Virus record (IMG/VR): IMGVR_UViG_3300037184_000101
Location: 1 to 32,064 of that record
Length of the DNA: 32,064 nt
Direction: 5' to 3' (one strand)
DNA from: a virus
Shown here: piece after piece, positions 19,119-31,102 of the stretch
Layout: each line of letters opens with the position of its first letter
How positions within the stretch are numbered: the stretch's first letter is position 1
The notes under the pieces: model-generated
What the model was told of the DNA's origin: nothing
What the model saw: the letters and a program-made list of their open reading frames with translations, nothing else
The model's database searches: none
Program-made: the position numbers and the translations under genes

Positions 19119-19192
19119 TGGTGGAGCTAAAGGGAGTCGAACCCTTATTTCCGGTTTGCGGAACCGATGTCCTGCCGTTGAACGACAGCCCC
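19119..19192 (-). tRNA. tRNA-Ala-like (anticodon CGC, C33 instead of U33); paralogue of tRNA-Ala(GGC)
   Basis: GGGGCTG/TAGCTCC with G3:U70. D-stem GTTC/GGAC. Anticodon stem TCGGT/ACCGG with loop TCCGCAA. T-arm AAGGG-TTCGACT-CCCTT. CCA encoded. About 80% identical to the gene at 15387-15460. Confidence 0.6.
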
Positions 19193-19765
19193 AAGATTGA
19201 CGAAGGCTGGTGCGCTATAACGAAGCGTTCTCCGTACTGTTAAATTGGTGAGATGGGTAGTGATAGAACACAATTCCATGGGCGTCACCTTCGCAGCCGA
19301 TACGGCAGTTTGCACGTAGCGGCACCCATCTCATATTTTTGTCGTTCGCACCCATGAGCGTATAGCCCATGTTTTAGCCGCCGTTCTGGTCTATCTCTAC
19401 ATTTTTCTCAGTCTTGCGACTGGTCCCCCTTTACGGGGAACTGCTCCAACCTTCCCGTTACCACGGCCAGCACTAGCCTTTGGGACTTTAGGATTGCTGC
19501 TAATTTGTGGTGTTAACGAATAGTTGAACACTGATTTACATTCGTTCTTATGGTGGAATGCGTTTAGTTTTCTCCGAACCTTGCGGCTCGTTAGGCTCAG
19601 TTGCAACATTTACATCAACTATTCTCCCAAACATCTGCTGTGCAGCGGCGAACTTCCTCTAATATTGAATGATGGAACCCAAGGCCATATACCATCGTTA
19701 GGCACGAAAGGGACTTCAATACCAGCGTAGAGTCGCTTACGACAAAATTCAAAGAACCGTTACTA

Positions 19766-20035
19766 TCATGCCCCTACTGTAGCAGGTTTCTTGCTGTCTG
19801 TCAAGGGCGACTTTTCAGCAAACCTTTGCGCCACATTCATGCCCCCGGCGGCAACCAAAATAGTTACAACCGATTCGGGGATTGGAGGAAAGACATATAT
19901 CCCGTGAACAACTGAAATGATTGATGCTGCTGTCCATACAGCGAAAACTCCAATGCCCCACACGAGCGAAAGAATACGAATAGATGATAACTTTCCCGAA
20001 GGGTCTTCAACGGCACTTGACAGTCTGAATTGCAT
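19766..20035 (-). CDS. small membrane protein
   Basis: 89 aa with two hydrophobic helices. Confidence 0.45.
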   Translation of the reverse strand: MQFRLSSAVEDPSGKLSSIRILSLVWGIGVFAVWTAASIISVVHGIYVFPPIPESVVTILVAAGGMNVAQRFAEKSPLTDSKKPATVGA

Positions 20036-20039
20036 AAAT

Positions 20040-20126
20040 TGGTGCTGGTGGGGAGAATCGAACTCCCACGTCCATTACAGACGGTAGGCTCTCAACCTAC
20101 TACGGCTACCGTTACGTCACACCAGC
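20040..20126 (-). tRNA. tRNA-Leu(GAG), type II
   Basis: GCTGGTG/CACCAGC-A-CCA. Anticodon stem GTAGG/CCTAC, loop TTGAGAG. Variable arm CGTC..GACG. T-arm GGGAG-TTCGATT-CTCCC. Confidence 0.8.
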
Positions 20127-20151
20127 AATATGGATATAAATATCTTCGACT

Positions 20152-20580
20152 TTATGAAAAAGTCGGGGGAGGTTCTTTGCGAGTAATCTCCTTGGCTTTC
20201 TCGAAATCTTCGAGTAAACCTTCTCGGTCATCTCTATACTTTTTGATCATGAACATGAAGGCGGCTTGTTCTTGGGGTCCAATCATTTCCATGACAAATG
20301 CCTTAATTTCATCGTCGTCAGGTTTCCAATCAAACTCTTCACAAATCGCCCGGACGCTATTTCCAGTCGGCATCATAGTCCAAGCACTTTCAATCAGTCC
20401 TTGCTTGGTGAGGTCATCGAGATAGCCAACAATGACCATGAGTGAAATGTGAGCACCATCAATGTCTGTGCCCGCTGCTTTGAGACGTTCCAAAATTGCT
20501 GTGAGTTTCTCTTCCTTATTCATGGTCAATATCCTATCAGGATTTAGGTTTGGCGTCAAGTTCTTTTTGAGATTTCTCAT
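20152..20580 (-). CDS. hypothetical protein
   Basis: 142-aa ORF. Weak hairpin CGACUUU..AAAGUCG downstream. Confidence 0.5.
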   Translation of the reverse strand: MRNLKKNLTPNLNPDRILTMNKEEKLTAILERLKAAGTDIDGAHISLMVIVGYLDDLTKQGLIESAWTMMPTGNSVRAICEEFDWKPDDDEIKAFVMEMIGPQEQAAFMFMIKKYRDDREGLLEDFEKAKEITRKEPPPTFS

Positions 20581-20586
20581 TAAGAA

Positions 20587-20868
20587 TTACGTTATCACAT
20601 AATTCTGTGTGTAGTCGCACGTAGGACAAATCCATCCATCTTTCGTGGCTACGAGTTCACGGTCATGAATGACCGCCTCTTCGTCTTCGTTTGGTTTCCC
20701 GCAAACTCCGATGGGGCGCTCTTCACCCGTCACTTTGTTTCGGGCATAGTAGATGCCAAACTTATCTCGGCAGTTGCCGCAGGTGTAAGGGTGGTATCTT
20801 CCATTGTGTTGATTCTCGTTCAGTTGTTGAACAAATTCGTCGGGCCAAGGTGGTTGAATGTACGGCAT
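20587..20868 (-). CDS. zinc-ribbon protein
   Basis: YTCGNCRDKF...VCGKP...WICPTCDY. The ORF tool start at 20928 overlaps tRNA-Pro, so the start is set at the internal ATG MPYIQ. Confidence 0.45.
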   Translation of the reverse strand: MPYIQPPWPDEFVQQLNENQHNGRYHPYTCGNCRDKFGIYYARNKVTGEERPIGVCGKPNEDEEAVIHDRELVATKDGWICPTCDYTQNYVIT

Positions 20869-20877
20869 AATTAAAAA

Positions 20878-20955
20878 TGGTCGGAGCGACGGGATTCGAA
20901 CCCATAATCTTGCAGACCCAAACCGCACGGAATAGCCAGATTATCCTACGCTCCG
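20878..20955 (-). tRNA. tRNA-Pro(TGG)
   Basis: CGGAGCG/CGCTCCG-A-CCA. Anticodon stem TGCGG/CTGCA, loop TTTGGGT (G37). T-arm ATGGG-TTCGAAT-CCCGT. Confidence 0.7.
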
Positions 20956-20962
20956 GTGTATA

Positions 20963-21388
20963 TTATTGGGCTTTTTCTAACGGTTTATCTGCCTCGGCAA
21001 GGGCATTTCCCATTCCTTGATTTTCGGGGTAATCCGATTTAGGAGCATTTCCAACCAACAATGGGTCTTCAGGCAACAAATGCCACGCTTCGGAGAGAGA
21101 GGATGAGGATACAGATTTCAGGTCGGAAATTTCATCAGCCAAAACATGCGCTTGTTCGACTGTTACAGGAATCTTCTCTCTGGAAACGCTTTCCTCACAC
21201 GCCTCCTTGATTTCCTTGGGAAGGGCGTCACCGACTGCCTTGAGGACATCGGCCGCAAATGCTGCATCTTTCTTTGCTCGGTCAAGTACTACTTGGCGGG
21301 CGATTTTGATTTTCTCTTCGGCGACTTGATTGGCAAGCCATACCTTAGCGGGATTTAGATGACGCTTGAAACTTCTTGTTTTTGACAT
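20963..21388 (-). CDS. hypothetical protein
   Basis: 141-aa hydrophilic ORF. Confidence 0.5.
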   Translation of the reverse strand: MSKTRSFKRHLNPAKVWLANQVAEEKIKIARQVVLDRAKKDAAFAADVLKAVGDALPKEIKEACEESVSREKIPVTVEQAHVLADEISDLKSVSSSSLSEAWHLLPEDPLLVGNAPKSDYPENQGMGNALAEADKPLEKAQ

Positions 21389-30297: not shown

Positions 30298-30353
30298 AAC
30301 TTTTTGTTTTCTGTAGTGAAGCTCTCAAGTTTTTTGAGTTTGCTTCTTATTGT

Positions 30354-30388
30354 GGTCATACTCTACCATATGACCGTTTCGCTGTCAA
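30354..30388 (-). promoter_or_regulatory. sigma70-like promoter TTGACA-N17-TAGAGT with overlapping palindrome GGTCATA-N8-TATGACC
   Basis: Minus strand: TTGACAgcgaaacggtcatatggTAGAGTatgacc. Inverted repeat 30354-30360 / 30369-30375 brackets the -10. About 55-nt leader to the MVP ATG. Confidence 0.5.
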
Positions 30389-30396
30389 CAAGAAAA

Positions 30397-30482
30397 TGGT
30401 GCTACTGATCCGATTCGAACGGGCAATGAATATTTGGGCCTAAGCCAAAACGGTTGTACCTGCTTCCCTTATCCGCAGTAGC
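30397..30482 (-). tRNA. tRNA-Leu(TAG)-like, long, irregular D-region
   Basis: GCTACTG/CAGTAGC-A-CCA. Anticodon stem TTTGG/CCAAA with loop CTTAGGC. Imperfect T-arm GCCCG-TTCGAAT-CGGAT. 26-nt D-region with only a CGG/CCG stem. 8-nt variable loop. Confidence 0.5.
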
Positions 30483-30487
30483 GTAAA

Positions 30488-30679
30488 TCATTCTTTTATC
30501 TTGGTTATTTGCATACCAAAATCGCAATCTTCGTCGGCTATAAGGTCAAGAATTCTATCCGACAAAGATTCGGTTATCAAATTGACGGCAACTTCATCGG
30601 AAGATGCTTTTACTTTCCCATCTTCTAACATAAATGAATCACTGCCAATGACCCAATAATAAGTGAGAACGTTGTTCAT
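30488..30679 (-). CDS. small acidic protein
   Basis: 63-aa ORF between two tRNAs. Confidence 0.35.
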   Translation of the reverse strand: MNNVLTYYWVIGSDSFMLEDGKVKASSDEVAVNLITESLSDRILDLIADEDCDFGMQITKIKE

Positions 30680-30683
30680 AAAA

Positions 30684-30761
30684 TGGTAGCACCGAAGGGA
30701 TTCGAACCCTCACTATCTAGTTCCTAAGACTAGCGCCTCCTACCAGTTGGGCTACGGTGCC
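30684..30761 (-). tRNA. tRNA with anticodon TAG (Leu?), type I (short variable loop)
   Basis: G1:U72 acceptor GGCACCG/CGGTGCT-A-CCA. Anticodon stem CTAGT/ACTAG, loop CTTAGGA. T-arm GAGGG-TTCGAAT-CCCTT. 5-nt variable loop. Confidence 0.6.
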
Positions 30762-30941
30762 ATTTTTCATATCAGTCAATGTGGCATAACAACTTATTAT
30801 ATCCGCATTTGTTGTTCCACATAAAACGGTGCTCGGTACGTCAGGTCACTCGGAGTCGAGCAGCCCTTCATCGCTTGAAGGCAAGCGTCCCGCATACGAA
30901 ATCGGTATCCCTATCCGTCCTCACTGATACCGAGCATAAAT
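30762..30941 (-). ncRNA. candidate structured spacer RNA between tRNA(TAG) and tRNA-Leu(CAG) (termini base-pair)
   Basis: 30770-30776 (tatcagt) is complementary to 30923-30929 (actgata). Internal hairpins GCTCG..CGAGC and CCTTCA-tcgct-TGAAGG. Non-coding. Confidence 0.3.
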
Positions 30942-31025
30942 TGGTGCTGGTGGGGAGAGTCGAACTCCCACGTCTTTCGACGATTGATTCTGAATCAATT
31001 GCGGCTACCGTTACGCCACACCAGC
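30942..31025 (-). tRNA. tRNA-Leu(CAG), type II
   Basis: GCTGGTG/CACCAGC-A-CCA. Anticodon stem ATTGA/TCAAT, loop TTCAGAA. Variable arm CGTC..GACG. T-arm GGGAG-TTCGACT-CTCCC. Paralogue of the Leu(GAG) gene. Confidence 0.8.
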
Positions 31026-31026
31026 G

Positions 31027-31102
31027 TCTCCCAGAGTGGATTTGAACCACCATTATTCTTGGCCCCGGACCAAGTGCCATAACCAAGTTAGGCGACTGAG
31101 AG
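31027..31102 (-). tRNA. tRNA-Pro(CGG)-like with C33; no encoded CCA
   Basis: Acceptor CTCTCAG/CTGGGAG-A. Anticodon stem CTTGG/CCAAG, loop TCCGGGG (G37). T-arm GGTGG-TTCAAAT-CCACT. Its 3' end is 1 nt from the tRNA-Leu(CAG) 5' end. Confidence 0.55.

Follow-up and report, generated by a model that had tools for sequence, protein, structure and literature searches.

Three tRNA genes with cytidine at position 33 in the tRNA array of an uncultivated huge phage

The tRNA array and its three C33 members

The window analysed here, a stretch of 32,064 nucleotides comprising positions 1 to 32,064 of the IMG/VR virus record IMGVR_UViG_3300037184_000101, carries an array of tRNA genes on its minus strand (positions 14350–31797). 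Genes were called with ARAGORN and checked with the Rfam tRNA covariance model RF00005 (gathering score 29 bits). The array consists of 18 ARAGORN tRNAs and one tRNA-like element devoid of a D-arm; the Rfam model recovers 16 of the 18, plus one weak extra match at 25830–25909. Uridine at position 33 (U33) is taught as almost invariant in elongator tRNAs, where it is needed for the U-turn of the anticodon loop, and it is found in 15 of the 18 array tRNAs when the loops are extracted from the ARAGORN calls. The remaining three, namely tRNA-Ala(CGC), tRNA-Val(AAC) and tRNA-Pro(CGG), carry a cytidine instead (C33), as a preliminary description of this DNA had stated, and are the subject of the present work.

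The gene for tRNA-Ala(CGC) (19119–19192, minus strand) has the anticodon loop UCCGCAA with C33 at position 19161, an encoded CCA end and an RF00005 score of 52.2 bits. That for tRNA-Val(AAC) (22549–22622, minus strand) has the loop UCAACAC with C33 at 22591 and A34 at 22590, also encodes CCA and scores 55.5 bits, and that for tRNA-Pro(CGG) (31026–31102, minus strand) has the loop UCCGGGG with C33 at 31068, lacks an encoded CCA and scores 41.3 bits. In window coordinates the plus-strand base at 19161, 22591 and 31068 is G, the genes being on the minus strand, which the preliminary description had not mentioned. The scores of Ala and Val fall inside, and that of Pro slightly below, the 46.5–67.2 bits spanned by the other array tRNAs. 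In the RF00005 alignments all three have C in the position-33 column of a seven-nucleotide loop, with the posterior probability given as '*' for Ala and Val and as 8–9 for Pro. The covariance model thus places all three in the canonical loop; therefore a better-scoring fold with U33, the alternative raised in the preliminary description, is not available, and no alternative register with U33 was found for any of the three. A turn shifted to U32 was considered and rejected, as both the Ala and the Pro tRNA would then read CGG; such a shift is also inapplicable to the many tRNAs with C32-C33.

Apart from U33, the trio has the features of class I elongator tRNAs in score, loop length and elbow, and the missing uridine does not expel it from the tRNA family RF00005. 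The T-loops (UUCGACU, UUCGAUU and UUCAAAU) are closed by G53-C61 and the D-loops contain GG. Besides G-U wobbles, the unpaired positions of the cloverleaves are limited to a single D-stem mismatch each in Val and Pro, the former being present also in the Val orthologues. The well-formed stems, the G3:U70 pair of Ala and G37 of Pro had all been pointed out before and are confirmed: the acceptor strands GGGGCUG and UAGCUCC of tRNA-Ala form G3-U70, and tRNA-Pro can be read to contain G35, G36, G37, A73 and C1:G72, which are identity elements for the E. coli prolyl-tRNA synthetase (ProRS). Features of eukaryote-type initiators are absent, with anticodons CGC, AAC and CGG, and anticodon stems and T-loops of the elongator type. 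A CCA end is encoded in all 17 other array tRNAs and missing only from tRNA-Pro(CGG), where the gene for tRNA-Leu(CAG) (30942–31025, minus strand) begins 1–2 nucleotides past the discriminator base.

The same array also encodes U34 isoacceptors for Ala, Pro and Val, with which the trio is redundant. In the open reading frames (ORFs) of the window, GUU is the commonest Val codon (39%, versus 19% for GUC), GCG accounts for 19% of the Ala codons and CCG for 23% of the Pro codons; therefore the three tRNAs read codons that the phage uses. A34 of tRNA-Val(AAC) is a Watson-Crick match to GUU. Its loop U-C-A-A-C-A-C is different from the Arg(ACG)-type loop (U33-A34-C35-G36) of bacterial tRNAs in which TadA edits A34 to inosine, and a scan of 29 window ORFs revealed no deaminase.

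Counterparts in related phages

DNA around a vault-like gene that lies within the array was taken from eleven relatives (L-numbers denote loci of related or background contigs), and several of them carry syntenic tRNA arrays. The counterparts of tRNA-Ala(CGC) have U33, with the loop CUCGCAC in L123 and L129 and UUCGCAA in L124 and L392–L394; the anticodon arm closest to that of the window gene belongs to Ala(UGC) of L437 (loop UUUGCAA). The counterparts of tRNA-Pro(CGG) likewise have U33 (UUCGGGU or UUCGGGG), and the closest anticodon arm is that of Pro(UGG) of L123 (4552), with the loop UUUGGGG and an identical anticodon stem. Orthologues of tRNA-Val(AAC), found by searching metagenomes and viral contigs with a D-arm pattern, are present in L127 (14863), L382, L385 and L392–L394, and all of these are Val(GAC) with the loop AUGACAC or AUGACAU. 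With U33 in all counterparts, the three C33s are private to the lineage of the window. Similarly, A34 of tRNA-Val(AAC) is a derived G-to-A change, as all of its orthologues are Val(GAC), and the earlier remark that this base is unusual was a fair one.

Not all relatives were informative. Zero tRNAs were found in L001 and L002 (mega-phage loci at the homologous vault gene) and in the P0017 loci L125 and L126, and the P0013 loci L132–L134 have 2–4 tRNAs only, none of them a counterpart of the trio. An alignment query with the vault-like protein returned five loci only, none closer than the other relatives compared, and a counterpart closer than the Ala(UGC) of L437 was absent from these five.

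Comparison of the stems was possible for Val and Ala, the structures of Pro and its homologue being different in length. tRNA-Val(AAC) and its orthologue in L385 differ by 4 compensatory pair changes, with no broken pair, and in unpaired positions only at 32–34. tRNA-Ala(CGC) differs from Ala(CGC) of L123 by 7 compensatory pair changes and 1 G-U change, again with no broken pair. Compensatory stem differences of this kind, with no pair broken, indicate that these genes are not decaying.

When each gene of the trio is compared with the homologue whose anticodon arm is closest to its own, C33 is found together with a transition at position 34: positions 33–34 read UU in the homologues and CC in the window for Ala (L437, 15655) and Pro (L123, 4552), and UG has become CA in Val (L385, 353), together with A32 to U. 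This coupling may be coincidental, because an ancestor with CGC or CGG, as in L124, L392 and L128, needs only a single U33-to-C step.

Frequency of C33 in phage and cellular tRNAs

For the background, IMG/VR and the GTDB genome set were scanned with one T-arm-plus-CCA pattern and ARAGORN was run on all tRNAs in the returned loci. The search pattern CGGTTNCGCAAACCG was too generic, being partly palindromic, and the unrelated loci that it returned were reused as background. The survey of C33 in related phage arrays that the preliminary description had called for gave C33 in 13 of 167 clade tRNAs (7.8%, counted as unique sequences) and in 13 of the 84 tRNAs within loci of related huge phages. The corresponding figures are 25 of 673 (3.7%) for tRNAs of unrelated viral contigs and 1 of 222 (0.45%) for cellular tRNAs. 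Three or more C33 among 18 tRNAs would arise by chance with a probability of 7e-5 given the cellular rate, 0.027 given the phage-contig rate and 0.16 given the clade rate. Pooled Fisher tests gave p = 0.0096 for phage versus cell, 0.035 for clade versus phage and 1e-4 for clade versus cell, the phage-cell comparison being confounded by seed-matching tRNAs, which are almost never C33 and form a larger share of the cellular set.

Among the 21 viral loci with at least 10 tRNAs, C33 is present in seven and reaches at least three copies in three, with a top fraction of 12.5%; in L400, which came from a later search, 3 of 14 tRNAs have C33. The 3 of 18 in the window is at the high end, but not different in kind. 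Many of the viral-contig C33 tRNAs score 46–72 bits on RF00005 and are therefore bona fide tRNAs. In the relatives, C33 is found in Val(GAC) and Val(UAC) of L123, Ser(UGA) and Val(CAC) of L127, Arg(UCG) and Val(GAC) of L128, Thr(GGU) of L129, Pro(UGG) of L135 and Ser(UGA) of L136–L138.

In phage-derived tRNAs, C33 was not associated with the strength of the codon box, the wobble base or the base at position 32. In this set, C makes up 51 of the 55 non-U33 calls, and the few tRNAs with a purine there are poorly paired in the anticodon stem; that the deviating base is nearly always C argues that selection still acts at position 33 and that a pyrimidine passes. In the literature searched, no paper reporting C33 in phage-encoded tRNAs, or its frequency there, was found. 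A C33 share of a few percent in phage tRNAs, higher in the huge-phage group and sometimes conserved, thus appears to be undescribed, the sample being small.

Some of the surveyed loci have further RNA features. In relatives, three tRNAs with a CUA anticodon, labelled 'Pyl' by ARAGORN, occur in L135 (2990–3061), L136 (1934–2019) and L407 (1035–1109, the same as L415 10923–10997). All three resemble amber suppressors, with C33 in the copies of L135 and L407 and A33 in that of L136. L201 contains a bacterial RNase P RNA (9376–9703, 263.7 bits) amid more than 30 tRNAs, four of which have C33, and could represent a piece of cellular DNA or a mobile element of an unusual kind. No tie to cultured phages was found for the background C33 loci L201 and L178. 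RNA genes in other C33 background loci are a GOLLD RNA in L162 (4731–5193) and transfer-messenger RNAs (tmRNAs) in L217 (4531–4883) and L248 (1426–1778).

Conserved C33 lineages

A Val tRNA family was delimited by its D-arm. C33 is present in 7 of the 11 distinct family members and in 5 of the 6 that are Val(GAC), these being from different contigs. The cloverleaf of this family is 97.4% paired, with both-sided changes at 15 of 21 pairs, and no shuffled or slid control comes close. The pairing together with the covariation implies that C33 is stably inherited here in tRNAs under strong structural selection. Ser(UGA) with C33 (loop CCUGAAA) is common to L127, L136 and L400 on different stems, and C33 versions of Thr(UGU) (CCUGUAC) and Gln(UUG) (CCUUGAA) recur across four or five contigs.

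The suggestion in the preliminary description that C33 is a lineage-specific feature therefore stands in part: C33 is commoner in the huge-phage clade and some tRNA lineages of the clade keep it, but the counterparts of the window's own trio all have U33 and C33 also occurs outside the lineage. For the companion suggestion of deliberately inefficient decoders we found nothing in support. Yeast tRNA-Leu(GAG), a non-essential tRNA with a natural C33, shows only a minor difference between C33 and U33 in the single in vivo test that the literature search turned up (PMC13492127).

Departures from other invariant positions

Further positions regarded as universal were compared from ARAGORN structure strings, in which positions 8 and 14 are unreliable and were not used. 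At positions 53, 54, 55, 56, 58, 61 and 33, in this order, the deviation is 0, 0, 0, 0, 2.3, 1.1 and 0.5% in cellular tRNAs, 2.0, 5.7, 3.5, 1.8, 4.9, 2.0 and 3.8% in viral-contig tRNAs and 2.4, 7.8, 5.4, 1.2, 4.8, 2.4 and 9.6% in clade tRNAs. A54 is present in 22 and U58 in 19 of 492 viral-contig tRNAs, compared with 0 and 1 of 88 cellular ones. Since phage tRNAs deviate in the T-loop as well, C33 is one instance of a general loosening at 'universal' positions.

Several array members of the window are aberrant in this sense. tRNA-Val(CAC) (22723–22796, minus strand) has the T-loop AGCGUAA (A54, G55, U58) and the D-loop AAUAGUA without G18G19. The same feature is present at L123 3621, L124 6666, L129 698, L130 2881, L132 17004 and L135 6264, and Gly, Phe, Gln, Ile and Glu tRNAs of the relatives likewise combine an AGCRUNA T-loop with an 'AG' D-loop. 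This arrangement looks like a covarying alternative elbow, in which a 54–58 swap goes along with changes at positions 18 and 55. tRNA-Ser(UGA) (24185–24276) and tRNA-Leu(GAG) (20040–20126, minus strand) are ARAGORN calls below the Rfam gathering score, and the T-loop of the former is closed by U53-A61 instead of G53-C61.

The D-arm-less element (25827–25909, minus strand) was missed by ARAGORN and scores 29.0 bits on RF00005, exactly the threshold. Its anticodon loop is CUUCUAA (Arg-UCU), and both a T-arm and an encoded CCA are present. Two acceptor pairs are mismatched, only 4 nucleotides replace the D-arm and the variable region spans 22 nucleotides; at its place the relatives have a normal tRNA-Arg(UCU). 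In tRNA-Ala(GGC) (15387–15460, minus strand; loop AUGGCAU) A32 and U38 are kept clade-wide (L123 15392, L128 15023, L136 10494). The same 32–38 combination is known to tune tRNA-Ala(GGC) of E. coli, which suggests that these phage tRNAs obey bacterial loop-tuning rules.

Genomic context of the array

The tRNA genes are interspersed with small ORFs, endonuclease genes and the gene of the vault-like protein; PhoH and baseplate genes are also present. The vault-like protein (27745–30297, minus strand) has 850 residues, with the major-vault-protein shoulder domain PF11978 and a weak PF17795 match. In tblastn it is 39–41% identical to a region of LR756500, LR756501 and LR756503, which are uncultured phage genomes of 462–735 kb, and it is 64–78% identical to proteins on metagenomic contigs of at most 125 kb; these matches identify the window as a piece of an uncultivated huge phage. 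The protein also has thousands of bacterial homologues. As a single query it returned no relative in IMG/VR, and its exact sequence had no record elsewhere. Megablast of the array against GenBank phages gave no match, and the sole match in blastn of the two Val genes is a 42-nucleotide stretch in a Streptomyces phage.

Four endonuclease ORFs lie in the array, encoding an HNH-like protein (18261–19067, minus strand), an HNH-like protein of the HNH_2 type (25051–25824, plus strand), an endonuclease-I-like protein below the Pfam cut-off (26362–27195, plus strand) and a PD-(D/E)XK endonuclease (31304–31717, minus strand). These ORFs may drive the exchange of tRNA genes between phages. Small ORFs on the minus strand encode a cytidylyltransferase-like protein (16649–17110, PF01467) and, at 17621–18100 and 23074–23553, a P-loop kinase similar to APS kinase or zeta toxin and a protein like dual-specificity phosphatases that falls below the Pfam cut-off; the kinase and phosphatase could hint at RNA-end repair.

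In the relatives, RNA ligases (PF09414, PF09511), a TadA/dCMP-deaminase-like protein and a SpoU-family methylase adjoin the vault-like gene. Their ORFs are located at L125 60–1115, L130 15816–16904 and 6350–6919, L123 8968–9624, L127 7142–7702, L128 9210–9791 and L135 9290–9901. The deaminase-like gene is present only in the distant relatives L130 and L131, and no RNA ligase, TadA/dCMP-deaminase-like protein or SpoU methylase was found among the 29 window ORFs scanned.

Discussion

The C33 bases are real, the tRNAs carrying them are intact, the variant is recurrent and sometimes conserved in phages, and T-loop invariants are loosened alongside it. C33 is, in our judgement, probably a near-neutral, tolerated variant of accessory phage tRNAs that are under relaxed or different constraint. 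The redundancy with U34 isoacceptors fits this reading. The three loci are genuine elongator tRNA genes of a huge phage, intact in structure and part of its accessory array, and each has a true U33-to-C substitution that arose within the genome's own lineage. As a pyrimidine, C33 probably still permits a usable turn of the anticodon loop and near-normal decoding, and the trio would most likely decode GCG, CCG and GUU in the ordinary way, if perhaps a little less strongly. Phage tRNAs are expected to supplement the host pool and would thereby be exposed to relaxed or different purifying selection at 'universal' positions, which could explain why C33 appears repeatedly, while purines at position 33 stay excluded. 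We infer expression, charging and function of the trio, as well as relaxed constraint as the cause, from sequence comparison. The mechanism behind the pattern is probably mundane.

Several points weigh against this interpretation. After removal of the seed-matching tRNAs, the phage-cell contrast is 22 of 468 versus 1 of 88 (p = 0.15), and with such a small cellular control our own contrast is only suggestive. Because of this small control, the phage-cell enrichment leans partly on the literature, according to which U33 is invariant in elongator tRNAs apart from rare exceptions (PMC5041475). The unpaired differences of tRNA-Val(AAC) from its orthologue all fall at positions 32–34, which looks more targeted than drift predicts, and the long conservation of C33 in the Val(GAC) family could mean positive maintenance.

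It is extremely improbable that the C33s are sequencing or assembly errors or mis-registered loops. The vault-like protein forms a singleton cluster, and accordingly no second copy of this exact genome was found for comparison. The preliminary description had envisaged errors not reproduced in related genomes, and formally the C33s of the trio are not reproduced there, but three independent errors at one structural position among 18 genes are implausible, the register is canonical with high posterior probability in the covariance-model alignments, and identical C33 tRNAs exist in independent assemblies, for example Ser(UGA) in L136–L138 and Thr(UGU) in five contigs. Less remote, yet still quite improbable, is that the trio represents redundant tRNA genes drifting into pseudogenes or retained as weak decoders. 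The C33s are private to this genome, the codons of the trio are also readable by U34 isoacceptors encoded alongside, and the gene for tRNA-Pro(CGG) lacks the CCA end. Other members of the array are aberrant as well, namely the D-arm-less Arg-like element, Val(CAC) with its odd elbow and Ser(UGA) with its U53-A61 pair. These signs are to be set against cloverleaves that are paired except for the single D-stem mismatches of Val and Pro, stem changes that are compensatory wherever counted (Val, Ala), RF00005 scores well above threshold, codons that are not rare in the window (GUU 39%, GCG 19%, CCG 23%) and the small effect of C33 in the one natural case tested (PMC13492127).

Counter-defence is another possibility, although an unlikely one: because of C33 and the changes at positions 32 and 34, a host enzyme acting on anticodon loops, by cleavage or by modification, would attack the phage tRNA poorly, and the phage could go on translating once host tRNAs are destroyed. 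Escape from anticodon nucleases via mutations in the anticodon loop has been proposed for phage tRNAs (PMC10264068), and it would agree with the restriction of the unpaired Val differences to positions 32–34 and with the stable retention of C33 in some phage tRNA families. The tRNA-repair-type RNA ligases and SpoU methylase encoded in or near the array of the relatives also suggest pressure on tRNAs. Against this, U33C stem-loops stay fully sensitive to both nucleases with which such loops were tested, colicin E5 (PMC1635277) and gamma-toxin (PMC2275089), and C33 is absent or rare in the isoacceptors on which known bacterial nucleases act (Lys 0/38, Tyr 0/23, His 0/28, Asp 0/27, Asn 1/36); it has no preference for wobble base or codon-box class, and the close counterparts of the window trio keep U33. 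We consider it rather unlikely that C33 and the other departures from invariance, such as the A54-G55-U58 T-loop with its A-G D-loop, form together a selected signature which is 'orthogonal' to host enzymes. If this were true, phage tRNAs would stay usable by the ribosome yet evade host enzymes that cleave or modify tRNAs, and the repeated C33 in phage arrays would be the outcome of an arms race at the anticodon loop rather than of relaxed constraint.

tRNAs with C33 are a known rare kind, to which the trio adds phage-encoded members. Many eukaryotic initiator tRNA-Met have C33 as a rare exception to U33 (PMC5041475), and yeast tRNA-Leu(GAG), like the trio, combines C33 with an otherwise normal loop and a codon that is also readable by a U34 isoacceptor (PMC13492127). 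These cases are eukaryotic, whereas the trio is phage-encoded and consists of bacterial-type Ala, Val and Pro elongators without initiator features. The tRNA-Ser(CAG) of Candida is a natural elongator with G33, whose loop is distorted and whose decoding efficiency is lower (PMC5041475, PMC13492127); its base 33 is a purine, in contrast to the pyrimidine C33 of the window, and purines at this position are essentially absent from credible phage tRNAs. Among phages, T5 resembles the window in having a long tRNA array amid small ORFs and HNH-type endonucleases with PhoH nearby. Unlike the window, it has U33 in all 22 of its credible tRNAs, although 0 of 22 is uninformative at a C33 rate of 4%, and the window belongs to a different, uncultivated group of huge phages. 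The phage tRNAs studied by van den Berg et al. 2023 (PMC10264068) are similar to the trio in having unexpected anticodon loops beside the anticodon; that paper, in which position 33 goes unmentioned, compares the tRNAs of phages and hosts where cleavage is known to occur.

For annotation, the trio should be kept as tRNAs and not as pseudogenes. C33 is carried by a few percent of phage tRNAs and by about 8–15% in this huge-phage group. If a full survey confirms this, phages would offer a set of naturally occurring C33 tRNAs for bacterial-type translation, in which the weight of the U-turn uridine can be tested, and these tRNAs could show whether host immunity that targets tRNAs shapes the tRNAs of phages.

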